Positions 5,449 to 52,829 of a stretch of DNA of 64,000 nucleotides are shown here, one piece after another. Each line of letters starts with the position of its first letter. The stretch's first letter is position 1. Under the pieces are notes generated by a model. It saw only the letters and a list, made by a program, of their open reading frames with translations. It did not search any database and was not told where the DNA came from. A program made the position numbers and the translations under genes. The stretch spans positions 1,738,001-1,802,000 of the forward strand of contig JASTWF010000033.1 of assembly GCA_030390025.1 (NCBI GenBank), given 5' to 3'. Origin of the DNA: Squalus acanthias. Taxonomy: Eukaryota.

Positions 5449-8400
5449 GGGCAGGTACAGCACGGGTTAGATACAGAGTAAAGCTCCCTCTACACAGGCC
5501 CATCAAACACTCCCAGGACAGGTGCAGCATGGGTTAGATACAGAGTAAAGGCCCATCTACACTGTCCGATCAAACACTCCCAGGGCAGGTACAGCACGGG
5601 ATAGATACAGAGCAAAGCTCCCTCGACACAGGCCCATCAAACACTCCCAGGACAGGTACAGCACGGTTTAGATACAGAGCAAAGCTCCCTCTACACTGTC
5701 CCATCAAACACTCCCAGGGCAGGTACAGCACGGGTTAGATACAGAGTAAAGTTCCCTCTACATTGTCCCAACAAACACTCCCAAGGAAGGTACAGCACGG
5801 GTTAGATACAGAGTAAAGTTCCCTCTACACTGTCCCATCAAACACTGCTAGGGCAGGTACAGCACAGGTTAGATACAGAGTAAAGCTAACTCTACACAGT
5901 CCCATCAAACACTTCCAGGGCAGTTCAGCACGGGTTAGATACAGAGTAAAGCTCCCACTACACTGTCCCATCAAACACTCCCAGGGCAGGTACAGCACGA
6001 ATTAGATACAGAGCAAAGCTCCCTCTACACAGGCCCATCAAACACTCCCAGGACAGGTACAGCACGGGTTAGATACAGAGCAAAGCTCCCTCGACACTGT
6101 CCCATCAAACAGTCCCAGGACAGGTACAGCACGGAATAGATACAGAGCAAAGCTCCCTCGACACAGGCCCATCAAACACTCCCAGGGGCAGGTACAGCAT
6201 GGGTTAGATACAGATAAAGCTCCCTCTACACTGTCCCATCAAAAACTCCCAGGGCAGGCACAGCACGGGTTAGATACAGCGCAAAGTTCCATCTACACAG
6301 GCCCATCAAACACTCCCAGGGCAGGTACAGCACGAATTAGATACAGAGTAAAGCTCCCTGTACACTGTCCTATCAAACACTCCCAGGGCAGGTACAGCAC
6401 GGGATAGATACAGAGTAAAGCTCCCTCTACACTGTCCCAACAAACACTCCCGGGGCAGGTACAGCACGGGTTAGATACAGAGTAAACTCGCTCTACACTG
6501 TCCCAATCAAATACTGCCAGGGCAGTTATAGCACGGGTTTGATACAGAGTAAAACACTCTCGACATAGTCACATCAAACACTCCCAGGGCAGGTACAGCA
6601 CGGGTCAGGTACAGTGTAAAGCTCCCTCTACACTGTCACAATCAAACACTGCCAGGGCAGGTACAGCACGGGTTAGATACAGAGTAAAGCTCCCTGTGCA
6701 CTGGCACATCAAACACTCCCAGGGCAGGTACAGCACAGGTTATATACAGAGTAAAGCTCCCTCTACACTGTCCCATCAAACAATCCCAGGGCAGTTACAG
6801 CAGGGGTTAGTTAGAGTAAAGCTCCCTCTACACTGTCCCATCAAACACTCCCAGGGTAGGTACAGCACTGGTTAGATACAGAGTAAAGCTCCCTCTACAC
6901 TGTCACATCAAACACTCCCAGGGCAGGTACAGCACTGGTTAGATACAGAGTAAAGCTCCCTCTACACTGTCCCATCAAATACTCCCAGGGTAGGTACAGC
7001 ATGGGTTAGATACATAGTAAAACTCCCTCTATACTGTGCCATCAAACATTCCCTGGGCAGGTACAGCACTGGTTAGTTACAGAGTAAAGCTCCCTATGTA
7101 CTGTCACATCAAACACTCTCAGGGCAGGAACAGCACGGGTTAGATACAGAGTAAACTCTCTCTACACTGTCCCATCAAACACGCCCAGGGCAGGTACAGC
7201 ACGGGTTAGATACAGAGTAAAGCTCCCTCTACACTGTCCCATCAAACACGCCCAGGGCAGGTACAGCACGGGTTAGATACAGAGTAAAGCGCCCTCTACA
7301 CTGTCCCATCACACACTCCCAGGTTAGGTACAGCACGGGTTAGATACAGAGTAAAGCTCCCTCTACACTGTCCCATCAAACACTCCCAGGGCAGGTACAG
7401 CACGGGTTAGATACAGAGTAAAGGTCCCCCTGCACTGTCCCATCAAACACTCCTAGGGCAGGTACAGCACGGGTTAGATACAGAGGAAAGCTCCCTCGAC
7501 AGTGTCCCACCAAACACTCCCAGGGTAGGTACAGCACAGTTTAGATACAGAGTAAAGCTCGCTCTATACTGTTCCATCAAACACTCCCGGGCAGGTACAG
7601 CACGGGTTAGATACAGAGTAAAGCTCCCTCTACACTATCCCATCAAATACCCCCAGGGCAGGTACAGCACGGGTTAGATACAGAGTAAGGCTCCCTCTAC
7701 ACTGTCCCATCAAACACTCCCAGGGCAGGTACAGCACGGGTTAGATAGAGTAAAGCTCCCTCAACACTGTCCCATCAAACACTCCCAGGGCAGGTACAGC
7801 ACGGGTTAGATACATAGCAAAACTCCCTCTATACTGTCCCATCAAACACTCCCAGGGCAGGTACAGCACTGGTTAGATACAGAGTAAAGCTCCCTCTGTA
7901 CTGTCCCATCAAACACCCCCAGGTCTGGTACAGCACGGGTTAGATACAGAGTAAAGCTCCCTCTACACTGTCGCATCAAACACTCCCACGGCAGGTACAG
8001 CACGGCTTAGATACAGAGTAAAGCTCCCTCTACACTGTCCCATCACACACTCCCAGGTTAGGTACAGCACGGATTAGATGCAGAGTAAAGCTCCCTCTAT
8101 ACTGTGCCATCAAACATTCCCAGGGCAGGTACAGCACTGGTTAGATACAGAGTAAAGCTCCCTCTGTACTGTCCCATCAAACACTCTCAGGGCAGGTACA
8201 GCACGGGTTAGATACAGAGTAAACTCTCTCTACACTGTCCCATCAAACACGCCCAGGGCAGGTACAGCACGGGTTAGATACAGAGTAAAGCTCCCTCTAC
8301 ACTGTCACATCAAACACTCCCAGGGCAGGTACAGCACTGGTTAGATACAGAGTAAAGCTCCCTCTACACTGTCCCATCAAATACTCCCAGGGTAGGTACA

Positions 8401-10808
8401 GCATGGGTTAGATACATAGTAAAACTCCCTCTATACTGTGCCATCAAACATTCCCTGGGCAGGTACAGCACTGGTTAGTTACAGAGTAAAGCTCCCTATG
8501 TACTGTCCCATCAAACACTCTCAGGGCAGGAACAGCACGGGTTAGATACAGAGTAAACTCTCTCTACACTGTCCCATCAAACACGCCCAGGGCAGGTACA
8601 GCACGGGTTAGATACAGAGTAAAGCTCCCTCTACACTGTCCCATCAAACACGCCCAGGGCAGGTACAGCACGGGTTAGATACAGAGTAAAGCGCCCTCTA
8701 CACTGTCCCATCACGCACTCCCAGGTTAGGTACAGCACGGGTTAGATACAGAGTAAAGCTCACTTTACACTGACCCATCAAACACTCCCAGGGCAGGTAC
8801 AGCACGGGTTAGATACAGAGAAAAGGTCCCCCTGCACTGTCCCATGAAACACTCCTAGGGCAGGTACAGCACGGGTTAGATACAGCGGAAAGCTCCCTCG
8901 ACAGTGTCCCACCAAACACTCCCAGGGTAGGTACAGCACAGTTTAGATACATAGTAAAACTCGCTCTATACTGTTCCATCAAACACTCCCCGGGCAGGTA
9001 CAGCACGGGTTGGATACAGAGTAAATCTCCCTCTACACTATCCCATCAAATACCCCCAGGGCAGGTACAGCACGGGTTAGATACAGAGTAAGGCTCCCAT
9101 TACACTGTCCCATCAAACACTCCCAGGGCAGGTACAGCACGGGTTAGATAGAGTAAAGCTCCCTCAACACTGTCCCATCAAATACTCCCAGGGCAGGTAC
9201 AGCACGGGTTAGATACATAGCAAAACTCCCTCTATACTGTCCCATCAAACACTCCCAGGGCAGGTACAGCACTGGTTAGATACAGAGTAAAGCTCCCTCT
9301 GTACTGTCCCATCAAACACCCCCAGGTCTGGTACAGCACGGGTTAGATACAGAGTAAAGCTCCCTCTACACTGTCGCATCAAACACTCCCACGGCAGGTA
9401 CAGCACGGCTTAGATACAGAGTAAAGCTCCCTCTACACTGTCCCATCACACACTCCCAGGTTAGGTACAGCACGGATTAGATGCAGAGTAAAGCTCCCTC
9501 TATACTGTGCCATCAAACATTCCCAGGGCAGGTACAGCACTGGTTAGATACAGAGTAAAGCTCCCTCTGTACTGTCCCATCAAACACTCTCAGGGCAGGT
9601 ACAGCACGGGTTAGATACAGAGTAAACTCTCTCTACACTGTCCCATCAAACACGCCCAGGGCAGGTACAGCACGGGTTAGCTACAGAGCAAAGCTCCCTC
9701 TACACTGTCCCATCAAACACGCCCAGGGCAGGTGCAGCACGGGTTAGATACAGAGTAAAGCGCCCTCCACACTGTCCCATCACACACTCCCAGGTTAGGT
9801 ACAGCACGGGTTAGATACAGAGTAAAGCTCCCTCTTCACTGTCCCATCAAGCACTCCCAGGGCAGGTACAGCGCGCGTTAGTTGCAGAGTAAAGCTCACT
9901 CTACACTGTCCCATCAAACACTCCCAGGGCAGGTACAGTACGGGGTTAGATACAGAGTAAAGGTCTCTCTGCACTGTCCCATCAAGCACTCCCAGGGCAG
10001 GTACAGCACCGGTTAGATGCAGAGTAAAGCGCCCTCTACACTGTCCCATCAAACACTCCCAGGGCAGGTACAGCACGGGTTATATACAGAGTAAAGCCTC
10101 CTTTACACTGTCCCATCAAACACTCCCAGGGCATGTGCAGCACTGGTTAGATACAGAGTAAAGCTCCCTCTACACTGTCCCATCAAATACTCCCAGGGCA
10201 GGTTCAGCACGGGTTAGATACCGAGTAAAGCTCCCTCTTCACTGTCCCATCAAGTACTCCCAGGGCAGCCACAGCACGGGTTAGATACAGACAAAAGCCC
10301 CCTCTACACTGTCCCATCCAACAGTCCCAGGGCACATGCAGCACAGGTTAGATGAAGCGTAAAACTCCAAGTACACTGTCTCATTAAACACTCCGAGGGT
10401 AGGTGCAGCACGCGTTAGATACAGAGTAAAGCTCCCTCTATACTGTCCCATCAAACACTCTCCGGGCAGGTACAGCACGGGTTAGATACAGAGCAAAGCT
10501 CCCTCTACACTATCCCATCAAATACACCCAGGGCAGGTACAGCACGGGTTAGATACAGAGTAAAGCTCCCTCTGCACTGTCCCATCAAACACTCCCAGGG
10601 CAGGTACAGCACAGGTTAGATACAGAGTAAAGCTCCCTCTACACTGTCCCATCAAACGTTCACAGGGCAGGTACAGCACGGGTTAGATACAGAGTTAAGC
10701 TCCCTCTACACTGTCCCATCAAACATTCAGAGAGCAGGTACAGCACGGGTTAGATACAGAGTAAAGCTCCCTCTATACTGTCCCATCAAACACTCCCAGG
10801 GCAGGTAC
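5449..10808 (-). repeat. 67-bp satellite array (about 80 monomers), reverse orientation
   Basis: Tandem unit gggcaggtacagcacgggttagatacagagtaaagctccctctacactgtcccatcaaacactccca; reverse complement of the unit at 37137-52829. Confidence 0.97.
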
Positions 10809-11195
10809 ACGGACATGTTACCGAAACCTTCGCTTGATACCAAGGCTAGGAGAGGCACTCTGGAAGGTTGGAGGAGCTGCGGCTGGAGCACGAGAGTAAC
10901 TAAAGGTGTGAGAACTGAAATAATCTTGAGTTAGAAAAGAGAAAAGGCCCAAAAATGGAGCAGTCATTAACAGGACATCAATTAGTCTCCTCTTATCTTG
11001 GAGAAATCAAGGATTCGACACACGGTGTGTTCGAAACAAAGTTAATCTATTTGACAGATATCAAAATATTAAACTCCAACCCACTTAGAGGGGTTATTAA
11101 CATCAGCAGAAACAAACTCCAACTGTCAGAATGAACATGGTTTAGTCTTGGATGTGATTAACAGCAGCAAAAACAGCAGAATCTAAGCCCTGCAG

Positions 11196-12063
<868 letters not shown>

Positions 12064-12244
12064 CTGTAAAAGGAGTTTACAAAAGACATCACTAAGTAGA
12101 GGATAGAAATTCAGAACAGACAATTCTAGTTTCTATGGAACATTCTTTCGTCTCTTGTTCCCCCAAAGCTGTAAATTTCCGTCCCACACACTCTCCCTCC
12201 TCCCTGTGCTGAAATCCAAACCCATCGCAACATCTCCAACACAC

Positions 12245-12840
12245 TGAAGGTGCTGACTCTGACTGGGTTCAGTTCGACACTCACTGGTTCCCCTCCCTCT
12301 CCTCCCCTGAAGGTGCTGACTCTGGCTGGGTTCAGTTCTACCCTCACTGGTTCCCCTCCCTCTCCTCCCCTGAAGGTGCTGACTCTGGCTGGGTTCAGTT
12401 CTGCACTCACTGGTTCCCCTCCCTCTCCTCCCCTGAAGCTGCTGACTCTGGCTGGATTCAGTTCCACACTCACTGGTTCCCCTCCCTCTCCTCCCCTGAA
12501 GGTGCTGACTCTGGCTGGGTTCAGTTCCACACTCACTGGTTCCCCTCCCTCTCCTCCCCTGAAGGTGCTGACTCTGGCTGGGTTCAGTTCTGCACTCACT
12601 GGTTCCCCTCTCTCTCTCCTCCCCTGAAGGTGCTGACTCTGGCTGGGTCCAGTTCTACACTCACTGGTTCTCCTCCCCTGAAGGTGCTGACTCTGGCTGG
12701 GTTCAGTTCTACACTCACTTGGTTCCCTCCCTCTCCTCCCCTGAAGGTGCTGACTCTGGCTGGGTTCAGTTCACTCACTGCTTCCCCTCCCTCTCCTCCC
12801 CTGAAGGTGCTGACTCTGGCTGGGTTCAGTTCACTCACTG
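12245..12840 (-). repeat. 63-bp minisatellite upstream of ZNF-A (about 9-10 units)
   Basis: Unit gtgagtgtagaactgaacccagccagagtcagcaccttcaggggaggagagggaggggaacca on the minus strand. Confidence 0.95.
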
Positions 12841-13205
12841 GGACCCTGAAGCCACGCCCCCTATTGGTTCCTTTACAAAGATGGACACGCATGCGCTTTA
12901 CCGCTCGACGAAGAAAGATGACGACGCAAAAACCCTCAGATCTCCTTTCCAAAGATGGCCGCCGTTAACCCGGGCCTAGTTTCTGGGAAAAAAGCCTCTG
13001 AGCTGCAAACACGGAACCTGTAGGTTCTCATTCCGGGCTTGCGGCCTACGCCAGGTGCTGATGAACCTCAGCGGGCGAGTGTGTTACCTCCCTGTGCCCC
13101 GCTGATTCGTAATCGGATCAAAAACCGCGTCTCCCAAATCGGCCCGCTCCCTGCCCTCAATCTACGGGCGGGCCCGGCGCCTGCGCACTGGGCTCCTGCA
13201 GTGGC
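12841..13205 (-). promoter_or_regulatory. CpG-rich promoter/first exon of ZNF-A with YY1-, NRF1-, GC-box- and CCAAT-like motifs
   Basis: aagatggccgcc at about 12952, gcgcctgcgca at about 13177, gccacgcccc and attgg at 12851-12867; block conserved in all five ZNF modules. Confidence 0.7.
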
Positions 13206-14504
13206 ATTTTCTTTCATGGTTCAAAAACAATAATACCTGTACAACTCATCAATTACATAGTAAATCCATTACATAGTAAATCCATTACATTCATCCATCA
13301 CAGTAAAAAATAAAGCCTTAAAAACAGCCTTATAGTTAATATAAATGCAATGATTAATTTTACAAATAATCAATAATGTTTACAGTACAAATACCCCTAA
13401 ACAATACCACACAACCTTTTAGATTTAAAATAATAAATCTCAAAGTTAACTCCACATAAAACAAAAACCATTTCAACACCAGTGTACAAACACATAGCAC
13501 CATCATAATCCAATTACAGGTAACATTTATTCCAATAACCCAAGAAAAAACCCATTTTACGCCAGTCCTACTGGCATTGTTCGTTTGATCTTTCGATCAT
13601 TCATTTAATTGTTTGTTCGTTCATTCAAGCGTTCGTTCGTTCGATCGAGCATAAGTTCCAATATGTAGGTCTGAATGCGTGCATGCGTATCATTTGTCTA
13701 AGTGCGCGCCTGCGTGCGTTCGCTCGATTATCGTTCGTTTGATCGTTCACCACGCGATCATTCGTTCGCTCGAGTGTAAGTTCCAATGTGCATGCTTGCG
13801 TTCGCTCGAATCGTTCATTCGACCACTACCCCATGAGGTCGTTCGTTTGATCGAGTGTAAGTTCCAATATGTCTGCTTGCGTTCGCTCGAATCGTTCATT
13901 CGACCACTACCCCATGAGGTCGTTCGTTTGATCGAGTGTAAGTTCCAATATGTCTGAATGCGTGCGTGCGTATCATTTGTCTAAGTGCGCGCCTGCGTGC
14001 ATTCGCTCGAATCGTTCGTTCTGTCACTGCACAAGTGATCATTCATTCGATAGAGTGTAAGTTCCAATATGCATGAATGCGTTCATTCGAATCGTTCGTC
14101 CGTTCGTTCACTCGAGCGTCTGTTCGTTCAATAAATTACCAATATTAATTTACTTTATCTTTTCAGCCACACCAACACTAGACAATAACCTCAAAGTAAA
14201 TTCCTACATAACCACCAATACATCATCATGTGCAAATTCCCACAGTCCTTATCAGAAAATCAATTAAGCTTCAAGTAAACTGCTTTCAAACAGAAAACCT
14301 GAAACCTTCCCAACAAAACAATTAAATACCAGTTCTACACCAGTCCTATTGGCAATCCATTAACTCATATCATTTGATGTTGTCGAACCATGTAAAGTCA
14401 AAGTCCTTGTCCACAGTCTTCAGCCCTTCCACGGAAAAAGAAGCCATCCACTTCCTGAAATCCCGTAAAAAGACCGAACACTCAAATCTTCTTCTGCTTG
14501 CTGT
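13205..14504 (-). repeat. Unclassified interspersed element: AT-rich flanks around a CpG-rich (TTCG)n-containing internal repeat
   Basis: Inverted copy at 33928-35125; internal recurring motif aagttccaat at about 13652, 13778, 13859, 13940 and 14059. Confidence 0.75.
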
Positions 14505-16090: not shown

Positions 16091-16094
16091 CACG

Positions 16095-16510
16095 GGGGAG
16101 AATGTGTCCCATTCATAATGGAGGAGCCCAGTGCGCAGGCGCAGTTCCCGCCTGTATTTGGAGCATGCGCAGTGTCACTGTGATCAGAGCCGGGCGAGTG
16201 CGGAAGCGCTGAAAGGTCGGAGTCGCGATTTTTGCGCCGATTACGAATCAGCGGGGCGCAGGGAGGTAACGTACCCGGTGGGTGGGCTTCATAAACACCT
16301 GGTGTAGGCCGCAAGCCCCGAATGAGAACCTACGGGTTCCCCGTTTGCAGCTCCGAGGCTTTTTCCCGGGAAAAGGCCCAGGTTAACGGCGGCCATCTTT
16401 GTAAAGAAAGGCTGAGGTTTTGTTCGTCTCCCTCTTGTTTCATCGAGCAGTACCGCGCATGCGCCGCCATCTTTGTAAAGGGACCAATAGTGGGCGGGGC
16501 TTCAGGGTCC
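16095..16510 (+). promoter_or_regulatory. CpG-rich promoter/first exon of ZNF-B (NRF1, YY1, CCAAT, GC box)
   Basis: tgcgcaggcgca at 16132, gcatgcgca at 16163, gccatcttt at about 16392 and 16466, ccaat and gggcgggg at 16484-16499. Confidence 0.7.
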
Positions 16511-17163
16511 CAGTGAGTGAACTGAACCCAGCCAGAGTCAGCACCTTCAGGGGTGGAGAGGGAGGGGAACCAGTGAATGTAGAACTGAACCCAGCCAGAG
16601 TCAGCACCTTCAGGGGTGGAGAGGGAGGGGAACCAGTGAGTGCAGAACTGAACCCAGCCAGAGTCAGCACCTTCAGGGGTGGAGAGGGAGGGGAACCAGT
16701 GAGTGCAGAACTGAACCCAGCCAGAGTCAGCACCTTCAGGGGAGGAGAGGGAGGGGAACCAGTGAGTGCAGAACTGAACCCAGCCAGAGTCAGCACCTTC
16801 AGGGGAGGAGAGGGAGGGGAACCAGTGAGTGAACTAAACCCAGCCAGAGTCAGCACCTTCAGGGGAGGAGAGGGAGGGGAACCAGTGAGTGTAGAACTGA
16901 ACCCAGCCATAGTCAGCACCTTCAGGGGAAGAGAGGGAGGGGAACCAGTGAGTGTAGAACTGAACCCAGCCAGAGTCAGCACCTTCAGGGGAGGAGAGAG
17001 AGGAACTAGTGAGTGTAGAACTGAACCCAGCCATAGTCAGCACCTTCAGGGGAGGAGAGGGAGGGGAACCAGTGAGTGTAGAAAGGAACCCAGCCAGAGT
17101 CAGCACCTTCAGGGGAGGAGAGGGAGGGGAACCAGTGAGTGTCAAACTGAACCCAGCCAGAGT
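16511..17163 (+). repeat. 63-bp minisatellite upstream of ZNF-B (about 10 units)
   Basis: 21-aa period VSVELNPARVSTFRGGEGGEP in ORF 16420-17202. Confidence 0.95.
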
Positions 17164-17366
17164 TGGTGGTTAAAACTGGAAGTGGAGAACAAACTGTCTT
17201 GAGACGTGCGATGTTTTTGGATTTTAGCACAGGGAGGAGAGACATTGTGTGGGATGGGGATTTGGAGGCACAAGAGAGGAAAGAATGTTCCATAGAAACT
17301 AGAATTGTCTGTTCTGAATTTCTGTCCTCTACTTACAGTGATGAGTTTTGTAAACTCTTTTTACAG

Positions 17367-18320
17367 GGTATTAGAAGGGGAGGATTTGAAGAAGGGAAAC
17401 ACAAACCAAACATCACGTCAAGATCTGACAGAGTCACTCGATTCATCAGGAACTGAATATCATCGGCCTTTGAATGTGGAAGGAGAAATGTTTGTTCTGT
17501 CTGTGGGAAAAGATTTCAAACATCAGTGTGACTGGAAAAGCACCGAGACACACACACCCGAGTGAGAGTGTTCCAGTGCACTGGCTGTGGAAAGAGCTTT
17601 AACCAGTTACACAGCCTGAAAAAACATCGCACCATTCACAGCGGGGAGAAACCGGACACGTGTTCTGTGTGTGGACACGGCTTCAACTGATCATCCAACC
17701 TGGAGAGACACAAGGACACCCGCATCACGGAGAAACCGTGGAAATGTGGGGACTGTTGGAAGGGATTCAATTACCCGTGTGAGCTGGAAATTCATCATCG
17801 CACTCACACTGGGGAGAGGCCATTCACCTGCTCTGAGTGTGGGAAGGGATTCACCCGTTCATCCCACCTCCTGAGACACCAGCGAGTTCACACTGGGGAG
17901 AGACCGTTCGCCTGCTCCGTGTGTGGGAAGGGATTCACTCAGTCACCCGATCTGCTGATTCACCAGCGAGTTCACACTGGGGAGAGGCCGTTCACCTGCT
18001 CCGAGTGTGGGAAGGAATTCACTAATTCATCCAACCTGCTGACACACCAGCGACTTCACACTGGGGAGAGGCCGTTCACCTGCTCTGAGTGTGGGAAGCG
18101 ATTCTCTCGTTCATCCAGCCTGCTGAGACACCAGCGAGTTCACACTGGAGAAAGGCCATTCACCTGCTCGGAGTGTGGGAAGGGATTCACTCGGTCATCC
18201 TACCTGCTGACACACCAGCAAGTTCACACTGGGGAGAGGCTGTTCACCTGCTCCGAGTGTGGGAAGCGATTCTCTCGTTCATCCTACCTGCTGAGACACC
18301 AGCGAGTTCACAAAAGTTGA
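17367..18320 (+). CDS. C2H2 zinc-finger exon ZNF-B; open 7-finger frame 17727-18320 lacking an ATG (gene or pseudogene)
   Basis: Acceptor ttttacAG ends at 17366; TGA at 17688. The frame is open from ACG 17727 (EKPWKCGDC...) through seven fingers to TGA 18320. The normal 3' UTR is replaced by an LTR element. Confidence 0.75.
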
Positions 18321-20549: not shown

Positions 20550-21852
20550 ACAATTCAATTCTATCACAATCGATCCCAATAATTGAACCCAATAGGTTAA
20601 AGTCTTAAGTCCAATTTTGTCAGCACGCTGCGACATTCGATGTCTGCAGATAACGGGAGATAAATTCTTAAAACTGCTGGATCTCTTGCTCTGCCATCAA
20701 CCTCTTATCAAACTGGAGCTGGCATTGCCTAATATGGTCGTCTCTGGCTACTGCACAGTCCAGAGACACAAGTCTGCATTTTCTTCAACACACATCAACA
20801 ACGTTAGAAGCAGGTAAAAACACTGTGGCCTTCCTGGGGCAGCACAAACCACTAGTCTCCAGACTTTCCTTATCCCAACATCATATTTCTGATCGAAACA
20901 TTCTATGATGAAAATATCCAAGGCCAGTTGGTTGCAAACACCAGCTGTTGCTCAGTGAAATCTCTCTCTCTCTCTAATGATACCAACCACATTTTCCCCG
21001 ATATCAAATGAACTAAACATGAACACCTTTCAGAAGCTGAATTAACCGAGGTCCATATGCCAACACCCCTCTCATCTTCCATTCACTTCAATTGAAAGGA
21101 AACCGACAGATTGGACCAGTCAGGATTTGAAAGATATTTACAACAGATTCTAGATGTTCTTAGAGTTGGGATCTTTCTCTATTCTGTCCACTCGAGGAGT
21201 TAGATAACAGACTTTCTCCTGTGAATATAGAGCTGGGGTATTGGGCCGTGATGTGTTCACTTGTTCATCTTGTTGACTCTAAACCTTTGCCAATTATTTG
21301 ATGTGATCTGTTTACTTGTACGTATTGTTTTAAATACACTTGCTGAGTGGATTCAAATTGAAATTGAAAGCAGGTTTGCAGGCGTGATGCTCTATTCACA
21401 CATCGAAGGTGAGAGAGATGCTGTGGGACACACGCTAAGTCCAGTAGCTGAAAGTGATTAACAGACTGGGTTTTGTGTTTAGTGATCCCGGGCGTGTTAC
21501 CGAGACCTTCCCTGGATACCAAGGCTAGGAGAGGCACTCTGGAAGGTATGGGGAGCTGGGACTTGTCCATGAGAGTAACCGAAGGTATGAGAACTGAAAT
21601 AATCTCGAGTTAGAAAGGAGAAAAGGCCCAAAAACGGAGCAGTTGGTAACAGGACATCAATTAGTCTCATCTTATCTTGGAGACATCAAATATCAACCCT
21701 CTGTGTTATTTGAAATATCAAAATATTAAACTCCAGCCCAGTTATAGGGGTTATTAACATCAGCAGAAATAAACCCCAACTGTCAGAATGAACATGGTTC
21801 AGTCCTGGATGTGATTAACAGCAGCAATAACAGCAGAATCCAACCCCTGCCG

Positions 21853-22718: not shown

Positions 22719-22930
22719 CTGTAAAAGGAGTTTACAAAACTCATCACTGTAAGTACAGGACAGAAATTCAGAACAGACAATTCTAGTTTCTATGGAACAT
22801 TATTTCCTCTCTTGTTCCTCCAAAGCTGTAAATCCCCGTCCCACACATTGTCCCTCCTCCCTGTGCTGAAATCCAAACAAATCGCACGTCTCAAGACAGT
22901 TTTTCGTACTCTCCCTGTTTTCACCACCAA

Positions 22931-23648: not shown

Positions 23649-23649
23649 G

Positions 23650-24130: not shown

Positions 24131-24174
24131 CAGACAGAGCAGTGAATGGATTCTCCCCCTTACCAATATGTTAG

Positions 24175-35125: not shown

Positions 35126-35127
35126 TT

Positions 35128-35936: not shown

Positions 35937-36120
35937 TCAGTGTGTTGGAGATGGTGCGATGGGTTTGGATTTCAGCACAGGGAGGAGGGAGAGTGTGTTG
36001 GATGGAGATTTACAGCTTTGGGGGAACAAGAGAGGAAAGAATGTTCCATAGAAACTAGAATTGTCTGTTCTGAATTTCTATCCTCTACTTAGTGATGTCT
36101 TTTGTAAACTCCTTTTACAG

Positions 36121-36907: not shown

Positions 36908-37136
36908 CAGCAGGGGTTAGATTCTGCTGTTTTTGCTGCTGTTAATCTCATCCAGGTCTGAACCATGTTCATTCTGACAGTTGGAGTTTGTTTCTGCTGA
37001 TGATAATAACCCCTCTAACTGGGCAGGAGTTTAATATTTTGCTATTTCAAATAACAGTGTGTCGATATTTGATGTCTCCAAAATAAGAGGAGACTAAATA
37101 GATTTGTATCAAGCGATGATATCGGTAACAGGTCCG

Positions 37137-40100: not shown

Positions 40101-43100
40101 AGGGTTTGATGGGACAGTGTAGAGGGAGCTTTACTCTGTATCTGACCCGTGCTGCACCTGCCCTGTGAGTGTTTGATGGGATAGTGTCAATGTAGTTTTA
40201 CTCTGTATCTCACCCGTGCTGTGCCTGCCATGGGAGTGTTTGATGGGACAGTGTGGAGGAAGCTTTACTCTGTATTTAACCCGTGCTGTACCTGCCCTGG
40301 GAGTGTTTGATGGGACAGTGTAGAGGGAGCTTTACTCTGTAGCTAACCCGTGCTGTACCTGCCCTGGGAGTGTTTGATGGGACAGTGTAGAGGGAGCTTT
40401 ATTCTGTATTTAACCCGTGCTGTAACTGCCCTGGGAGTGTTTGATGGGACAGTGTAGAGGGAGCTTTACTGTGTATCTAACCCATTCTGTACCTGCCCTG
40501 GGAGTGTTTGATGGGATAGTGTAAAGGGAGCTTTACTGTGTATGTAACCAGTGCTGTACCTACCCTGGGAGTGTTTGATGGGACAGTGCAGAGGGAGCTT
40601 TACTCTGTATCTAACCCGTGCTGTACCTGCACTGGAAGTGTTTGATGGGACAATGTTGAGGGAGCTTTACTCTGTATGTAACCTGTGCTGCACACGCCCT
40701 CGGAGTGTTGGATGGGACAGTGCAGAGGGTGCTTTACTCTGTATCTAACCCTTGCTGTACCTGCCCTGGGAGTGTTTGATGGGACAGAAAAGCGGGAGCT
40801 TTACTCTGCAACTAACCCGTGCTGTACCTGCCCTGGGAGTGTTTGGTGGGTCAGTGTAGAGGGTGCTTTACTCTGTATCTAACCCTTGCTGTACCTGCCC
40901 TGGGAGTGTTTGATGGGACAGTATAGCGGGAGTTTTACTCTGTAACTAACCCGTGCTGTACCTGCCCTGGAAGTGTTTGATGGGACAATGTACAGGGTGC
41001 TTTACTCTGTATGTAACCTGTGCTGTACCTGCCCTGGGAGTGTTGGATGGGACAGTGTAGCGCGAGCTTTACTCTGTATCTAACCCGTGCTGTAGATGCC
41101 CTGGGACTGTTTGATGGGACAGTGCAGAGGGAGCTATACTCTATATTTAACCCGTGCTGTACCTGCCCAGGCAGTGTTTGATGGGACAGTGTAGAGGGAG
41201 CTTTACTCTGTATCTGACCCGTGCTGTACCTGCCCTGGGAGTGTTTGATGGGACCGTGTAGAGGGAGTTTTACTCTGTAGCTAACCCCTGCTGTACCTGC
41301 CCTGGGAGAATTTGATGGGACAGTGTAGAGGGACCTTTACTCTGTATCTGACCCGTGCTGCACCTGCCCTGTGAGTGTTTGATGGGATAGTGTCAATGGA
41401 GTTTTACTCTGTATCTCACCCGTGCTGTGCCTGCCCTGGGAGTGTTTGATGGGACAGTGTGGAGGAAGCTTTACTCTGTATCTAACCCGTGCGGTACCTG
41501 CCCTGGGAGTGTTTGATGGGACAGTGTAGAGGGAGCTTTACTCTGTAGCTAACCCGTGCTGTACCTGCCCTGGGAGTGTTTGATGGGACAGTGTAGAGGG
41601 ACCTTTATTCTGTATTTAACCCGTGCTGTACCTGCCCTGGGAGTGTTTGATGGGACAGTGTAGAGGGAGCTTTACTCTTTATCTAACCCGTGCTGTACCT
41701 GCCCTGCGAGTGTTTGATGGGACAGTGCAGAGGGAGCTTTTCTCTGTAGCTAACCCGTGCTGTACCTGCCCTGGGAGTGTTTGCTGGGACAATGTAGAGG
41801 GAGCTTTAATCTGTATCTAACCCGTGCTGTACCTTCCCTGGGAGTGTTTGGTGGGACAATGTAGCGGGGGCTTTACTCTGTATCTAACCCGTGCTGTACA
41901 TGCCCTGGGACTGTTTGATGAGACAGTATAGAGGGAGCTTTACTCTGTATCTAACCCGTGCTGTACCTGCCCTGGGAGTGTTTGATGGGATAGTGTAAAG
42001 GAAGCTTTACTCTGTATGTTGCCTGTGCTGTACCTGCCCTGGAAGTGTTTGATGTGACAGTGTAGAGGGAGCTTTACTCTGTTTCTAACCTGTGCTGTAC
42101 CTGCCCTCGGAGTGTTTGATGGGACAGTATAGAGCGAGCTTTACTCTGTATCTAACCCGTGCTGTACCGACCCTGTGAGTGTTTGGTGGGACAGTGCAGA
42201 GGGAGCTTTACTCTGTATCTAACCCGTGCTGTACCTGCCCTGGGAGTGCTTGATGGGACAGTGTAGAGGGAGCTTTACTCGATATTTATCCCGTGCTGTA
42301 CATGCATTGGCAGTGTTTGATGGGACAGTGTAGAGGGAGCTTTGCTCTGTATCTAACCTGTGCTGTACCTACCCTGGGAGTGTTTGATGGGACGATGTAG
42401 AGGGACCTTTACTCTATCTTTCCCGTGCTGTACCTACCCTGGGAGTGTTTGATGGGACAGTTAGAGCGTGCTTTACTCTGTATCTAACCCGTGCTGTACC
42501 TCTCCTGGGAGTGTTTGGTGGGACAGAGCAGAGGGAGCTATACTCTGTATCTAACCCGTGCTTTACCTGCCCTGGGAGTGCTTGATGGGACAGTACAGAG
42601 GGAGCTTTACTCTGTCTCTAACCCCGTGCTGTACCTGCCCTGGGAGTGTTTGATGGAACAGTATAGAGCGAGCTTTACTCTGTATCTAACCCATGCTGTA
42701 CCTACCCTGGGAGTGTTTGGTGGGACAATGTAGTGGGAGCTTTACTGTGTATCTAACCCGTGCTGTAACTGCCCTGGGAGTGTTTGATGGGATAGTGCAA
42801 AGGGAGCTTTACTGTGTATGTAACCCGTGCTGTACCTGCCCTGGGAGTGTTTGATGGGACAGTGCAGAGGGAGCTTTACTCTGTATCTAACCCGTGCTGT
42901 ACCTGCCCTGGAAGTGTTTGATGGGACAATGTAGAGGGAGCTTTACTCTGTATGTAACCTGTGCTGTACCTGCCCTGGGAGTGTTTGATGGGACAGTGTA
43001 GAGGGTGCTTTACTCTGTATGTAACCCTTGCTGTACCTGCCCTGGGAGTGTTTGATGGGACAGTATAGCGGGAGATTTACTCTGTAACTAACCCGTGCTG

Positions 43101-46100
43101 TACCTGCCCTGGGAGTGTTTGGTGGGACAGTGTAGAGGGAGCTTTACTCTGTATCTAACACGTGCTGTACCTGCCCTAGGAATGTCAGATGGGATAATGT
43201 AGAGGGAGTTTTACTCTTTATCTAACCCGTGCTGTAGATGCCCTGGGACTGTTTGATGGGACAGTGTAGAGGGAGCTATACTCTGTATCTAACCTGTGCT
43301 GTACCTACCCTGGGAGTGTTTGATGGGACAGTGCAGAGGGAGCTATACTCTGTATCTAACCTGTGCTGTACCTGCCTTGGGAGTGTTTGATGTGACAGTA
43401 TGGAGCGAGTTTTACACTGTATCTAACCCGTGCTGTGCCTGCCCTGGGAGTGTTTGATGGGACAGTGTGGAGGGAGCTTTACTCTGTATGTAACCGTGCT
43501 GTACCTGCCCTGGAAGTGTTTGATGCGACAGTGTAGAGGGAGCTTTACTCTGTATCTATACCGTGCTGTACCTGCCCTGGGAGTGTTGGATGGGACAGTG
43601 CAGAGGGTGCTTTACTCTGTATCTAACCCTTGCTGTACCTGCCCTGGGAGTGTTTGATGGGACAGAAAAGCGGGAGCTTTACTCTGCAACTAACCCGTGC
43701 TGTACCTGCCCTGGGAGTGTTTGGTGGGTCAGTGTAGAGGGTGCTTTACTCTGTATCTAACCCTTGCTGTACCTGCCCTGGGAGTGTTTGATGGGACAGT
43801 ATAGCGGGAGTTTTACTCTGTAACTAACCCGTGCTGTACCTGCCCTGGAAGTGTTTGATGGGACAATGTACAGGGTGCTTTACTCTGTATGTAACCTGTG
43901 CTGTACCTGCCCTGGGAGTGTTGGATGGGACAGTGTTGCGCGAGCTTTACTGTGTATCTAACCCGTGCTGTAGATGCCCTGGGACTGTTTGATGGGACAG
44001 TGTAGAGGGAGCTATACTCTATATTTAACCCGTGCTGTACCTGCCCAGGCAGTGTTTGATGGGACAGTGTAGAGGGAGCTTTACTCTGTATCTGACCCGT
44101 GCTGTACCTGCCCTGGGAGTGTTTGATGGGACCGTGTAGAGGGAGTTTTACTCTGTAACTAACCCCTGCTGTACCTGCCCTGGGAGAATTTGATGGGACA
44201 GTGTAGAGGGAGCTTTACTCTGTATCTGACCCGTGCTGCACCTGCCCTGTGAGTGTTTGATGGGATAGTGTCAATGGAGTTTTACTCTGTATCTCACCCG
44301 TGCTGTGCCTGCCCTGGGAGTGTTTGATGGGACAGTGTGGAGGAAGCTTTACTCTGTATATATCCCGTGCGGTACCTGCCCTGGGAGTGTTTGATGGGAC
44401 AGTGTAGAGGGAGCTTTACTCTGTAGCTAACCCGTGCTGTACCTGCCCTGGGATTGTTTGATGGGACAGTGTAGAGGGAGCTTTATTCTGTATTTAACCC
44501 GTGCTGTACCTGCCCTGGGAGTGTTTGATGGGACAGTGTAGAGGGAGCTTTACTCTTTATCTAACCCGTGCTGTACCTGCGCTGCGAGTGTTTGATGGGA
44601 CAGTGCAGAGGGAGCTTTACTCTGTAGCTAACCCGTGCTGTACCTGCCCTGGGAGTGTTTGCTGGGACAATGTAGAGGGAGCTTTAATCTGTATCTAACC
44701 CGTGCTGTACCTTCCCTGGGAGTGTTTGGTGGGACAATGTAGCGGGAGCTTTACTCTGTATCTAAACCATGCTGTACCTGCCCTAGGAGTGTTTGATGGG
44801 ATAGTGTAAAGGGAGCTTTACTCTGTATCTAACCCGTGCTGTACATGCCCTGGGACTGTTTGATGAGACAGTATAGAGGGAGCTTTACTCTGTTTCTAAC
44901 CTGTGCTGTACCTGCCCTCGGAGTGTTTGATGGGACAGTGTAGAGGGAGCTTTACTCTGTATCTAACCCGTGCTGTACCTGCCCTGGGAGTGTTTGATGG
45001 GACAGTGTAGAGGGAGTTTTACTCTGTATCTAACCCGTGCTGTACCTGCCCTGGGAGTGTTTGATGGGACAGTGTAGAGGGAGTTTTACTCTGTATCTAT
45101 ACCGTGCTGTACCTGCCCTGGGAGTGTTGGATGGGACAGTGCAGAGGGTGCTTTACTCTGTATCTAACCCTTGCTGTACCTGCCCTGGGAGTGTTTGATG
45201 GGACAGAAAAGCGGGAGCTTTACTCTGCAACTAACCCATGCTGTACCTGCCCTGGGAGTGTTTGGTGGGTCAGTGTAGAGGGTGCTTTACTCTGTATCTA
45301 ACCCTTGCTGTACCTGCCCTGGGCGTGTTTGATGGGACAGTATAGCGGGAGTTTTACTCTGTAACTAACCCGTGCTGTACCTGCCCTGGAAGTGTTTGAT
45401 GGGACAATGTACAGGGTGCTTTACTCTGTATGTAACCTGTGCTGTACCTGCCCTGGGAGTGTTGGATGGGACAGTGTTGCGCGAGCTTTACTCTGTATCT
45501 AACCCGTGCTGTAGATGCCCTGGGACTGTTTGATGGGACAGTGTAGAGGGAGCTATACTCTATATTTTACCCGTGCTGTACCTGCCCAGGCAGTGTTTGA
45601 TGGGACAGTGTAGAGGGAGCTTTACTCTGTATCTGACCCGTGCTGTACCTGCCCTGGGAGTATTTGATGGGACCGTGTAGAGGGGGTTTTACTCTGTAAC
45701 TAACCCATGCTGTACCTGCCCTGGGAGAATTTGATGGGACAGTGTAGAGGGAGCTTTACTCTGTATCTGACCCGTGCTGCACCTGCCCTGTGAGTGTTTG
45801 ATGGGATAGTGTCAATGGAGTTTTACTCTGTATCTCACCCGTGCTGTGCCTGCCCTGGGAGTGTTTGATGGGACAGTGTGGAGGAAGCTTTACTCTGTAT
45901 CTAACCCGTGCAGTACCTGCCCTGGGAGTGTTTGATGGGACAGTGTAGAGGGAGCTTTACTCTGTAGCTAACCCGTGCTGTACCTGCCCTGGGAGTGTTT
46001 GCTGGGACAATGTAGAGGGAGCTTTAATCTGTATCTAACCCGTGCTGTACCTTCCCTGGGAGTGTTTGGTGGGACAATGTAGCGGGAGCTTTACTCTGTA

Positions 46101-49100
46101 TCTAAACCATGCTGTACCTGCCCTAGGAGTGTTTGATGGGATAGTGTAAAGGGAGCTTTACTCTGTATCTAACCCGTGCTGTACATGCCCTGGGACTGTT
46201 TGATGAGACAGTATAGAGGGAGCTTTACTCTGTTTCCTAACCTGTGCTGTACCTGCCCTCGGAGTGTTTGATGGGACAGTGTAGAGGGAGCTTTACTCTG
46301 TATCTAACCCGTGCTGTACCTGCCCTGGGAGTGTTTGATGGGACAGTGTAGAGGGAGCTTTACTCTGTATCTAACCCGTGCTGTACCTGCCCTGGGAGTG
46401 TTTGATGGGACAGTGTAGAGGGAGCTTTACTCTGTATCTAACCCGTGCTGTACCTGCCCTGGGAGTGTTTGATGGGACAGTGTAGAGGGAGCTTTACTCT
46501 GTATCTAACCCGTGCTGTACCTGCCCTGGGAGTGTTTGATGGGACAGTGTAGAGGGAGCTTTACTCTGTATCTAACCCGTGCTGTACCTGCCCTGGAGTG
46601 TTTGATGGGACAGTGTAGAGGGAGCTTTACTCTGTATCTAACCCGTGCTGTACCTGCCCTGGGAGTGTTTGATGGGACAGTGTAGAGGGAGCTTTACTCT
46701 GTATCTAACCCGTGCTGTACCTGCCCTGGGAGTGTTTGATGGGACAGTGTAGAGGGAGCTTTACTCTGTATCTAACCCGTGCTGTACCTGCCCTGGGAGT
46801 GTTTGATGGGACAGTGTAGAGGGAGCTTTACTCTGTATCTAACCCGTGCTGTACCTGCCCTGGGAGTGTTTGATGGGACAGTGTAGAGGGAGCTTTACTC
46901 TGTATCTAACCCGTGCTGTACCTGCCCTGGGAGTGTTTGATGGGACAGTGTAGAGGGAGCTTTACTCTGTATCTAACCCGTGCTGTACCTGCCCTGGGAG
47001 TGTTTGATGGGACAGTGTAGAGGGAGCTTTACTCTGTATCTAACCCGTGCTGTACCTGCCCTGGGAGTGTTTGATGGGACAGTGTAGAGGGAGCTTTACT
47101 CTGTATCTAACCCGTGCTGTACCTGCCCTGGGAGTGTTTGATGGGACAGTGTAGAGGGAGCTTTACTCTGTATCTAACCCGTGCTGTACCTGCCCTGGGA
47201 GTGTTTGATGGGACAGTGTAGAGGGAGCTTTACTCTGTATCTAACCCGTGCTGTACCTGCCCTGGGAGTGTTTGATGGGACAGTGTAGAGGGAGCTTTAC
47301 TCTGTATCTAACCCGTGCTGTACCTGCCCTGGGAGTGTTTGATGGGACAGTGTAGAGGGAGCTTTACTCTGTATCTAACCCGTGCTGTACCTGCCCTGGG
47401 AGTGTTTGATGGGACAGTGTAGAGGGAGCTTTACTCTGTATCTAACCCGTGCTGTACCTGCCCTGGGAGTGTTTGATGGGACAGTGTAGAGGGAGCTTTA
47501 CTCTGTATCTAACCCGTGCTGTACCTGCCCTGGGAGTGTTTGATGGGACAGTGTAGAGGGAGCTTTACTCTGTATCTAACCCGTGCTGTACCTGCCCTGG
47601 GAGTGTTTGATGGGACAGTGTAGAGGGAGCTTTACTCTGTATCTAACCCGTGCTGTACCTGCCCTGGGAGTGTTTGATGGGACAGTGTAGAGGGAGCTTT
47701 ACTCTGTATCTAACCCGTGCTGTACCTGCCCTGGGAGTGTTTGATGGGACAGTGTAGAGGGAGCTTTACTCTGTATCTAACCCGTGCTGTACCTGCCCTG
47801 GGAGTGTTTGATGGGACAGTGTAGAGGGAGCTTTACTCTGTATCTAACCCGTGCTGTACCTGCCCTGGGAGTGTTTGATGGGACAGTGTAGAGGGAGCTT
47901 TACTCTGTATCTAACCCGTGCTGTACCTGCCCTGGGAGTGTTTGATGGGACAGTGTAGAGGGAGCTTTACTCTGTATCTAACCCGTGCTGTACCTGCCCT
48001 GGGAGTGTTTGATGGGACAGTGTAGAGGGAGCTTTACTCTGTATCTAACCCGTGCTGTACCTGCCCTGGGAGTGTTTGATGGGACAGTGTAGAGGGAGCT
48101 TTACTCTGTATCTAACCCGTGCTGTACCTGCCCTGGGAGTGTTTGATGGGACAGTGTAGAGGGAGCTTTACTCTGTATCTAACCCGTGCTGTACCTGCCC
48201 TGGGAGTGTTTGATGGGACAGTGTAGAGGGAGCTTTACTCTGTATCTAACCCGTGCTGTACCTGCCCTGGGAGTGTTTGATGGGACAGTGTAGAGGGAGC
48301 TTTACTCTGTATCTAACCCGTGCTGTACCTGCCCTGGGAGTGTTTGATGGACAGTGTAGAGGGAGCTTTACTCTGTATCTAACCCGTGCTGTACCTGCCC
48401 TGGGAGTGTTTGATGGGACAGTGTAGAGGGAGCTTTACTCTGTATCTAACCCGTGCTGTACCTGCCCTGGGAGTGTTTGATGGGACAGTGTAGAGGGAGC
48501 TTTACTCTGTATCTAACCCGTGCTGTACCTGCCCTGGGAGTGTTTGATGGGACAGTGTAGAGGGAGCTTTACTCTGTATCTAACCCGTGCTGTACCTGCC
48601 CTGGGAGTGTTTGATGGGACAGTGTAGAGGGAGCTTTACTCTGTATCTAACCCGTGCTGTACCTGCCCTGGGATGTTTTTGATGGGACAGTGTAGAGGGA
48701 GCTTTACTCTGTATCTAACCCTGCTGTACCTGCCCTGGGAGTGTTTGATGGGACAGTGTAGAGGGAGCTTTACTCTGTATCTAACCCGTGCTGTACCTGC
48801 CCTGGGAGTGTTTGATGGGACAGTGTAGAGGGAGCTTTACTCTGTATCTAACCCTGCTGTACCTGCCCTGGGAGTGTTTGATGGGACAGTGTAGAGGGAG
48901 CTTTACTCTGTATCTAACCCGTGCTGTACCTGCCCTGGGAGTGTTTGATGGGACAGTGTAGAGGGAGCTTTACTCTGTATCTAACCCGTGCTGTACCTGC
49001 CCTGGGAGTGTTTGATGGGACAGTGTAGAGGGAGCTTTACTCTGTATCTAACCCGTGCTGTACCTGCCCTGGGAGTGTTTGATGGGACAGTATAGAGGGA

Positions 49101-52100
49101 GCTTTACTCTGTATCTAACCCGTGCTGTACCTGCCCTGGGAGTGTTTGATGGGACAGTGTAGAGGGAGCTTTACTCTGTATCTAACCCGTGCTGTACCTG
49201 CCCTGGGAGTGTTTGATGGGACAGTGTAGAGGGAGCTTTACTCTGTATCTAACCCGTGCTGTACCTGCCCTGGGAGTGTTTGATGGGACAGTGTAGAGGA
49301 GCTTTACTCTGTATCTAACCCGTGCTGTACCTGCCCTGGGAGTGTTTGATGGGACAGTGTAGAGGGAGCTTTACTCTGTATCTAACCCGTGCTGTACCTG
49401 CCCTGGGAGTGTTTGATGGGACAGTGTAGAGGGAGCTTTACTCTGTATCTAACCCGTGCTGTACCTGCCCTGGGAGTGTTTGATGGGACAGTGTAGAGGA
49501 GCTTTACTCTGTATCTAACCCGTGCTGTACCTGCCCTGGGAGTGTTTGATGGGACAGTGTAGAGGGAGCTTTACTCTGTATCTAACCCGTGCTGTACCTG
49601 CCCTGGGAGTGTTTGATGGGACAGTGTAGAGGGAGCTTTACTCTGTATCTAACCCGTGCTGTACCTGCCCTGGGAGTGTTTGATGGGACAGTGTAGGGAG
49701 CTTTACTCTGTATCTAACCCGTGCTGTACCTGCCCTGGGAGTGTTTGATGGGACAGTGTAGAGGGAGCTTTACTCTGTATCTAACCCGTGCTGTACCTGC
49801 CCTGGGAGTGTTTGATGGGACAGTGTAGAGGGAGCTTTACTCTGTATCTAACCCGTGCTGTACCTGCCCTGGGAGTGTTTGATGGGACAGTGTAGAGGGA
49901 GCTTTACTCTGTATCTAACCCGTGCTGTACCTGCCCTGGGAGTGTTTGATGGACAGTGTAGAGGGAGCTTTACTCTGTATCTAACCCGTGCTGTACCTGC
50001 CCTGGGAGTGTTTGATGGGACAGTGTAGAGGGAGCTTTACTCTGTATCTAACCCGTGCTGTACCTGCCCTGGAGTGTTTGATGGGACAGTGTAGAGGGAG
50101 CTTTACTCTGTATCTAACCCGTGCTGTACCTGCCCTGGGAGTGTTTGATGGGACAGTGTAGAGGGAGCTTTACTCTGTATCTAACCCGTGCTGTACCTGC
50201 CCTGGGAGTGTTTGATGGGACAGTGTAGAGGGAGCTTTACTCTGTATCTAACCCGTGCTGTACCTGCCCTGGGAGTGTTTGATGGGACAGTGTAGAGGGA
50301 GCTTTACTCTGTATCTAACCCGTGCTGTACCTGCCCTGGGAGTGTTTGATGGGACAGTGTAGAGGGAGCTTTACTCTGTATCTAACCCGTGCTGTACCTG
50401 CCCTGGGAGTGTTTGATGGGACAGTGTAGAGGGAGCTTTACTCTGTATCTAACCCGTGCTGTACCTGCCCTGGGAGTGTTTGATGGGACAGTGTAGAGGG
50501 AGCTTTACTCTGTATCTAACCCGTGCTGTACCTGCCCTGGGAGTGTTTGATGGGACAGTGTAGAGGGAGCTTTACTCTGTATCTAACCCGTGCTGTACCT
50601 GCCCTGGGAGTGTTTGATGGGACAGTGTAGAGGGAGCTTTACTCTGTATCTAACCCGTGCTGTACCTGCCCTGGGAGTGTTTGATGGGACAGTGTAGAGG
50701 AGCTTTACTCTGTATCTAACCCGTGCTGTACCTGCCCTGGGAGTGTTTGATGGGACAGTGTAGAGGGAGCTTTACTCTGTATCTAACCCGTGCTGTACCT
50801 GCCCTGGGAGTGTTTGATGGGACAGTGTAGAGGGAGCTTTACTCTGTATCTAACCCGTGCTGTACCTGCCCTGGAGTGTTTGATGGGACAGTGTAGAGGG
50901 AGCTTTACTCTGTATCTAACCCGTGCTGTACCTGCCCTGGGAGTGTTTGATGGGACAGTGTAGAGGGAGCTTTACTCTGTATCTAACCGTGCTGTACCTG
51001 CCCTGGGAGTGTTTGATGGGACAGTGTAGAGGGAGCTTTACTCTGTATCTAACCCGTGCTGTACCTGCCCTGGGAGTGTTTGATGGGACAGTGTAGAGGG
51101 AGCTTTACTCTGTATCTAACCCGTGCTGTACCTGCCCTGGGAGTGTTTGATGGGACAGTGTAGAGGGAGCTTTACTCTGTATCTAACCCGTGCTGTACCT
51201 GCCCTGGGAGTGTTTGATGGGACAGTGTAGAGGGAGCTTTACTCTGTATCTAACCGTGCTGTACCTGCCCTGGGAGTGTTTGATGGGACAGTGTAGAGGG
51301 AGCTTTACTCTGTATCTAACCCGTGCTGTACCTGCCCTGGGAGTGTTTGATGGGACAGTGTAGAGGGAGCTTTACTCTGTATCTAACCCGTGCTGTACCT
51401 GCCCTGGGAGTGTTTGATGGGACAGTGTAGAGGGAGCTTTACTCTGTATCTAACCCGTGCTGTACCTGCCCTGGGAGTGTTTGATGGGACAGTGTAGAGG
51501 AGCTTTACTCTGTATCTAACCCGTGCTGTACCTGCCCTGGGAGTGTTTGATGGGACAGTGTAGAGGAGCTTTACTCTGTATCTAACCCGTGCTGTACCTG
51601 CCCTGGGAGTGTTTGATGGGACAGTGTAGAGGGAGCTTTACTCTGTATCTAACCCGTGCTGTACCTGCCCTGGGAGTGTTTGATGGGACAGTGTAGAGGA
51701 GCTTTACTCTGTATCTAACCCGTGCTGTACTGCCCTGGGAGTGTTTGATGGGACAGTGTAGAGGGAGCTTTACTCTGTATCTAACCCGTGCTGTACCTGC
51801 CCTGGGAGTGTTTGATGGACAGTGTAGAGGGAGCTTTACTCTGTATCTAACCCGTGCTGTACCTGCCCTGGGAGTGTTTGATGGGACAGTGTAGAGGGAG
51901 CTTTACTCTGTATCTAACCCGTGCTGTACCTGCCCTGGGAGTGTTTGATGGGACAGTGTAGAGGGAGCTTTACTCTGTATCTAACCCGTGCTGTACCTGC
52001 CCTGGGAGTGTTTGATGGGACAGTGTAGAGGGAGCTTTACTCTGTATCTAACCCGTGCTGTACCTGCCCTGGGAGTGTTTGATGGGACAGTGTAGAGGGA

Positions 52101-52829
52101 GCTTTACTCGTATTTAACCCGTGCTGTACCTGCCCTGGCAGTGTTTGATGGACAGTATAGAGGGAGCTTTACTCTGTATCTAACCCGTGCTTACCTGCCC
52201 TGGGAGTGTTTGATGGGACAGTGTAGAGGGAGCTTTACTCTGTATCTAACCCGTGCTGTACCTGCCCTGGAAGTTTGATGGGACAGTGTAGAGGGAGCTT
52301 TACTCTGTATCTAACCCGTGCTGTACCTGCCCTGGGAGTGTTTGATGGGACAGTGCTGAGTGAGCTTTACTCTGTATCTAACCAGTGCTGTACCTGCCCT
52401 AGGCGTGTTTGATGGAACAGTACAGAGGGAGCTTTACTCTGTATCTAACCCGTGCTGTACCTGCCCTGGGAGTGTTGATGGGACATGTAGCGGGAGCTTT
52501 ACTCTGTATCTAACCCGTGCTGTACCTGCCCTGGGAGTGTTTGATGGGACATGTAAGGGGAGCTTTACTGTATAGTAACCCGTGCTGTACCTGCCCTGGG
52601 AGTGTTTGATGGGACAGTGTAGAGGGAGCTTTTACTCTGTATCTAACCCGTGCTGTACCTGCCCTGGGAGTGTTTTGATGGGACAGTGCAGAGGGAGCTT
52701 TACTCTGTATCTAACCTGTGCTGTACCTCCGCCCTGGACTGTTTGAATGGGACAGTGTAGAGGGAGCTTTCTCTGTATCTAACACCGTGCTGTAACCTCT
52801 GGGAGTGTTGATGTGACAGTGTAGAGGAG
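37137..52829 (+). repeat. 67-bp satellite array (about 234 monomers), forward orientation, running into the gap
   Basis: Unit cctgccctgggagtgtttgatgggacagtgtagagggagctttactctgtatctaacccgtgctgta. Confidence 0.98.

Follow-up and report, generated by a model that had tools for sequence, protein, structure and literature searches.

The window analysed here is a 64,000-nucleotide stretch of Squalus acanthias DNA (contig JASTWF010000033.1, positions 1,738,001 to 1,802,000). It contains a repeat-rich, vertebrate-type C2H2 zinc-finger (ZNF) cluster with five finger-array modules, A to E, and two remnants. Modules A and E lie in inverted orientation, and the 3' flank of each joins an array of one 67-base-pair (bp) satellite at the same base. 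A paralogue, module C, carries this flank in an unfused state, variants of the junction occur elsewhere in public sequence data, the two arrays have turned over independently, and identity between A and E is a patchwork. The best explanation, with a probability of roughly 0.55, is an old satellite-tailed ZNF subfamily with patchwork exchange. The satellite would be mainly a passenger, and the palindrome a by-product of family duplication.

The features of the cluster are as follows.

5448..10809, plus strand: left 67-bp satellite array, 80 units; outer end against a short CR1-like fragment
10800..10825, no strand: left satellite/ZNF junction; homology with the satellite-less module C ends at this point
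10810..11200, minus strand: module A 3' flank; a segment of about 20 bp is present as in D and missing from E and C
11201..12243, minus strand: module A finger exon (6 fingers) and intron
12244..12840, minus strand: module A 63-bp array, 9.5 copies
12841..13205, minus strand: module A GC-rich region, putatively promoter-like
13206..14502, no strand: unclassified element common to A and E, at the same site in both and not in B or C
16100..18320, plus strand: module B, without satellite, inverted partner of C
21489..24128, minus strand: module C, unfused state; 3' flank shared with A as far as the junction base; without satellite
27313..28467, minus strand: module D, 10 fingers, open 299-codon frame, more distant, without satellite
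33930..37136, plus strand: arm E; upstream element, promoter-like region, 63-bp array, intron, 5-finger exon, 3' flank
37137..46314, minus strand: right 67-bp array, diverged part, 137 units; own higher-order blocks
46315..52829, minus strand: right 67-bp array, near-pure consensus part; runs into the N gap at 52830-53029

Module A spans 10.8-13.2 kilobases (kb) on the minus strand and module E spans 35.1-37.1 kb on the plus strand. The interior between the two 67-bp arrays is 26.3 kb, and the spacer between arms A and E is 19.4 kb. A Pfam scan placed zf-C2H2 (PF00096) in five stretches of module E and ten stretches of module D.

Inverted arms and satellite arrays

Arm A (10810-14502) aligns with the reverse complement of arm E (33930-37136) at 94.6% over 3162 gap-free columns (94.7% over 3152 columns in a second alignment). 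This bears out the initial annotation, which had described inverted arms that join the satellite at a homologous base; its interpretation is supported only in part. The arms differ by indels of approximately 145 bp in the junction flank (deleted in E), 179 bp in the 63-bp array, 77 bp in the upstream element, and 83-84 bp in the finger exon. The last of these is one finger (6 in A and 5 in E), and the 63-bp array has 9.5 copies in A and 6.8 in E. Exact-match tracts between the arms reach 100-113 bp. Arm homology stops at 14502, where it abuts a 30-bp array on the A side; the counterpart end in E is not in a tandem array.

Identity between A and E varies by segment. It is 96.2% in the leader and intron, 88.5% in the promoter-like region, and 95.5% in the upstream element. 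At the junction, the 3' flank is star-like, with 88.9% identity for A-E, 88.3% for A-C, and 88.0% for E-C. E and C share the flank deletion of about 20 bp, while A and D retain the segment. With CpG sites excluded, the segment differences persist: A and E have diverged by 3.0% in the leader and upstream element, against 11.2% in the flank (p = 6e-7) and 9.6% in the promoter (p = 4e-6). Judged by these divergences, the junction flank is the oldest part of the arm. A clean ancestry switch within finger 5 was considered and dropped, because a single in-register indel of 84 bp accounts for the 6-versus-5 difference and identity declines gradually toward the junction.

Modules B and C form an inner inverted pair without satellite. 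Their identity is 92.2% overall and 95.7% in the leader and intron, a closeness comparable to that of A and E. This pair does not support the idea that inversion depends on the satellite. Only two of the five modules in the window adjoin the satellite; B, C, and D do not. Module C and the 3' flank of A agree as far as the junction base, beyond which C runs into unique sequence; no satellite remnant was found at its junction site. The 3' flank of B lies in a direct repeat (82.7%) at 18337-18675 and 20703-21065, between the tail-to-tail modules B and C.

The coding state of the modules fits decaying copies. Module A has two 1-bp frameshifts, both 1-bp losses within short runs and possibly assembly errors, and module E has a His-to-Leu change in finger 4. 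Two TGA stops are present in the leader of each of A, B, C, and E, and are in-frame in A. Met is absent from the listed finger frames of B, E, and the 5' part of A, and the first Met of C lies 41 codons beyond the start of finger 1. For the finger exons of D and E, the best 25 Pfam families included no KRAB domain.

The 63-bp array occurs at the same place in four modules (12244-12840, 16519-17163, 22930-23640, and 35518-35936). These arrays are 95-97% identical between modules, which is above the identity of their surroundings. Each unit contains what we take to be a splice donor.

The upstream element shared by A and E (13206-14502 and 33930-35130) is 1.2-1.3 kb long. It contains internal repeats of 16 and 81 bp, and one of its ends carries a 46-residue frame. 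This frame matched no Pfam family and none of 1.84 billion protein representatives, and so gave no match for a putative likeness of the element to the Tx1/L1 clade of long interspersed nuclear elements (LINEs).

The left and right arrays (80 units, and 234 units at 37137-52829) are built of one 67-bp unit in opposite orientation, and both end at the homologous base of unit and flank. Units diverge from the consensus by 6.4% in the left array and 6.4-6.5% in the diverged part of the right array. The monomer distance between left and right is 12.2%, the same as the 11.9% within each array. The two arrays are alike only as members of one family, not as ordered copies. The ten units nearest each junction have one variant common in register. 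The best five-unit diagonal between the arrays has 6 common variants, compared with 6.0 when shuffled (95th percentile, 7) and 21-24 for duplications within an array. Anti-diagonals and matching with k = 3, 5, and 8 units all fell within the shuffled range between arrays. The longest exact match between them is 87 bp of plain consensus, and no higher-order block is common to both on either diagonal. Each array instead has its own young higher-order blocks. The left array contains a 21-unit duplication with copies 98.8% identical, and the right array contains blocks at lags of 18, 23, 25, and 43 units that are 96-99% identical. BLAST aligned the left array with the distal right array at 93% identity, a value that reflects similarity to the consensus and was discounted as evidence of relatedness.

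Co-duplication of the arrays was simulated. At 4-5% divergence, 12-14 common variants per five units are expected, and at 11% divergence, 3.1. Co-duplication or exchange as young as the arms (4-5%) is rejected, because the best value seen is 6 and chance alone gives 6.0. An outward extension of the arms by the arrays, as a single unit of recent duplication, is thus not supported, since no unit order is common to them and a young duplication would show. Opposite array orientation is no separate evidence, because the direction of the tail is fixed to the gene and A and E are inverted.

The left array starts and stops in the same 12-base unit phase (5425-5459 and 10798-10809). Its outer end adjoins a 56-bp CR1-like fragment (82% to 26653-26708) and not a continuation of the C flank. 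Comparison of the sequence left of the left array with that right of the N gap gave matches to dispersed repeats only, with no outer arm.

The right array ends at 52829, the edge of a gap of 200 N (52830-53029). Among units R138-R224 (approximately 46.3-52.1 kb), 67 of 87 are exact consensus copies, and the whole stretch has 3 substitutions and 20 deleted bases. Sixteen of the 20 deletions lie within runs, against a background of 37%. Units R1-R137 have 1 exact consensus copy in 137, 589 substitutions, and 7 deletions. At about 46.3 kb, units diverged by approximately 6.5% give way abruptly to near-pure consensus. Polishing of a contig end to the family consensus probably accounts for the last 6.5 kb of the right array, which could alternatively be young and homogeneous. 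Passages of one report describe the over-polishing of satellites (bioRxiv 10.1101/2021.07.02.450803). The initial annotation had proposed an array-capped domain of about 47 kb. Opposite arrays do stand at both sides, but 47 kb is no measured size, because the distal right array is polished or homogeneous and stops where the gap begins. In principle, the 26.3-kb interior could flip. The analysis, which covered short contigs and for which the outer right array is uninformative, gave no trace of inversion.

Junction copies in public sequencing runs

Contigs of 4 of 20 public runs were aligned to 10765-11200 at 80% likeness. Runs X1 and X3 are two studies of organism A (95% and 55% read, respectively), X6 is organism B, and X13 is organism E. 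X1 is possibly the source of the assembly. Contigs indicate presence only, and their depth is a rough guide rather than a copy number.

Contigs that aligned through 10810-10815 with letters unlike A and E numbered 5 in X1, 10-12 in X3, and 2 in X6. Given three changes in six bases, these contigs are probably anchored on the satellite side. X13 had no such contigs and no junction-spanning depth, which in presence-only data is not taken as absence. The summed depth at 10810-10815 was approximately 6,900 (X1), 131,000 (X3), 145 (X6), and 0 (X13), and at 10825 it was 11,400, 158,000, 918, and 52, respectively. The 67-bp satellite itself reached 7-58 million in X1 and X3, versus thousands to hundreds of thousands on the flank. 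The junction is multi-copy, is present in two studies of organism A and in organism B, and belongs to a minority of the ZNF family. As the initial annotation anticipated, it is not unique to this locus; further variants occur in contigs of three of the four runs and point to one inherited event.

Relative to the depth of the 3' untranslated region (UTR) at 11143, junction depth was 1.4% in X1, 0.4% in X6, and 20% in X3. With two of five modules in the window fused and a junction depth of 0.4-20% of the UTR depth as a rough guide, the suggestion that the satellite junction may be the general architecture of ZNF spread is not supported. Junction and flank depth (10810-10869) relative to the ZNF 3' UTR was approximately 15-fold higher in X3 than in X1, although both are organism A. 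Copy number, library type, and contig sampling are candidate causes of this difference.

The unfused continuation of C was found as a loose end in a single contig of X6 and a single contig of X13, so that fusion is probably the derived condition. An E-type skip from 10840 to 10982 was found in one X1 contig with a depth of 169.5, above all eight listed X1 pieces (3-79). The pieces are too short to tell whether each junction leads into a gene.

Origin of the inverted arrangement

The starting point would have been a single rearrangement that joined an array of the 67-bp satellite to a C-type module at its 3' flank. The unfused C is observed, and the polarity of the change is the probable one given above. 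The satellite-tailed module may then have been copied repeatedly in the segmental duplication of a very large C2H2 family. A and E would be two such copies, inverted within a cluster of mixed orientation. Because the satellite always points the same way relative to the gene, genes in opposite orientation necessarily have arrays in opposite orientation. Local unequal exchange has since changed each array on its own, and the gene parts would have swapped tracts with paralogues, presumably by conversion, to give the observed 89%/96% patchwork.

Several findings weigh against this reading. Of the informative sites, 22 of 23 in the leader and 20 of 26 in the promoter unite A with E, and the upstream element is present in these two modules only. 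At 10832, the letter of C accounts for 84-100% of depth, and A and E form a subgroup because both carry the minority letter. In the leader and promoter sequence, A and E are mutual closest relatives in the window, which would also agree with one local inverted duplication. At 12%, the arrays have diverged as far as the flank (11%); an old co-duplication of the arrays at about 11% divergence would be undetectable at that age and is compatible with the data. Among the 32 pieces listed of 86,315, none bridges the junction with 31 letters on each side.

A single local inverted duplication could accordingly have made both arms and arrays, with the palindrome kept by arm-to-arm conversion and the arrays able to flip the interior. 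The 95-96% tracts, the exact tracts of 100-113 bp, and the upstream insertion common to A and E are in keeping with such an event, as is the undetectability of an 11%-old co-duplication. We regard it as quite unlikely, given arms of 3.2-3.7 kb at 94.6% with large indels around a 19.4-kb spacer, higher-order blocks not common to the arrays, and no exact match between them beyond 87 bp of consensus. The depth of the E-type flank deletion in X1, from one contig, also hints at closer kin of E elsewhere. This scenario and the satellite-tailed subfamily overlap, in that A and E may have arisen locally inside the larger subfamily. An assembly fold-back or a chimeric join through the satellite is very improbable. 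The right array does end in consensus-like sequence and a gap, and the frameshifts of A are 1-bp losses in short runs, but the arms are 5% different with gene-specific indels, both arrays have their own diverged higher-order structure beside the junction, and public contigs contain A-type letters as well as the E-type deletion. The initial annotation, which doubted a simple fold-back because the arms are diverged, is supported on this point.

Tentatively, the satellite could itself be the agent, with modules copied by recombination or template switching from the tail array into any other satellite array, so that A and E sit in different host arrays. The junction is multi-copy, the satellite is extremely abundant, and the far end of A also adjoins a tandem array. 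At its outer end, the left array gives way to a CR1-like fragment rather than to the sequence that follows the flank in C. Unit order unrelated between arrays is expected if each belongs to its landing site, but age alone also predicts this. Divergence along the arm is highest, not lowest, beside the junction, three of the five modules were duplicated without satellite, and the far end of E is not within a tandem array. If the satellite is the agent, it would provide a testable route to very high ZNF copy numbers and a base-exact marker for tracing them. It is unlikely that the subfamily is a satellite-anchored mobile cassette with arrays as landing pads, hundreds or more copies, strong copy-number differences between individuals, and flips of small clusters; the roughly 15-fold difference in relative junction depth between the two studies of organism A would fit the copy-number part of this picture.

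Under the satellite-tailed subfamily reading, the junction can serve as a dated marker for one ZNF subfamily, found in two organisms and with a known unfused state. Two cautions apply to similar loci. An inverted pair of arrays is to be expected wherever satellite-tailed genes are inverted, and polishing at contig ends can raise both the apparent identity and the apparent length of an array.

Known systems and neighbouring features

At human 19p12, genes and satellite were reportedly duplicated together, as the title of Eichler et al. 1998 (Genome Res 8:791) suggests. A Kruppel-type ZNF cluster interspersed with beta-satellite blocks is described there, as cited in passages of PMC3018141 and PMC2671837. 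The locus resembles this arrangement by analogy, being a C2H2 cluster with a satellite of similar unit length (67 bp here, and 68 bp for the Y beta-satellite monomer in a passage of PMC2671837). The likeness shown is one of arrangement; the unit, checked on both strands, is without the conserved 9-base block named in that passage. Unlike human 19p12 as described in those passages, the fusion here is base-exact at the 3' flank, the copies are inverted, and the genome is that of a cartilaginous fish. The satellite holds a fixed position relative to several gene copies, namely two of the five modules here and the junction variants in contigs.

In the beta-satellite/DUX cassette of the primate Y, satellite and gene are amplified as one cassette, and orthologous blocks have independent higher-order repeats (passages of PMC2671837). 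SST1 arrays flank the 19q13.12 ZNF genes (passages of PMC3018141). The locus is like the former in having satellite and gene as a cassette with separate higher-order repeats, and like the latter in having ZNF genes between two arrays. It differs from both, as they are described in these passages, in its genes, units, and lineage. The Y palindrome P1 has 1.5-Mb arms with 99.97% identity and a 2-kb centre (passage of PMC5816366). Inverted gene-bearing arms around a spacer are common to both, but the arms here are 3.2-3.7 kb and 94.6% identical with indels of up to 179 bp, and the 19.4-kb spacer is longer than the arms. The near-identical arms and short spacer of a conversion-maintained Y-type palindrome are thus absent from this locus.

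Lineage-specific tandem C2H2 ZNF expansions are clustered poly-finger genes, according to passages of PMC10547256 and PMC2443715. The cluster is like them in its mixed orientation, variable finger number, and decayed members. Those passages mention neither a fused satellite tail nor cartilaginous fish, and "cartilaginous" and "chondrichth" have no occurrences in the main text of PMC10547256. Passages of PMC10620051 give short shark chromosomes a high simple-repeat content and do not mention zinc fingers. In the mostly open-access literature searched, no published description of the 67-bp satellite or the junction was found.

An Rfam search of 4200-38000 returned no matches. A 5'-truncated CR1-like LINE with an open 552-codon reverse-transcriptase frame (PF00078) lies at 24175-25833, next to the promoter of C, and a remnant of a decayed finger exon lies at 25930-26450. 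A promoter-only remnant at 32859-33153 is head-to-head with E; modules A and B are likewise head-to-head. Other tandem arrays are located at 3000-4235 (39 bp), 14503-15048 (30 bp), 29513-30969 (27 bp), and 55125-55748 (312 bp). A further tandem array at 55886-64000, with a unit of approximately 27 bp, has a GC content of 71-76% and a strong strand skew, and extends beyond the window.

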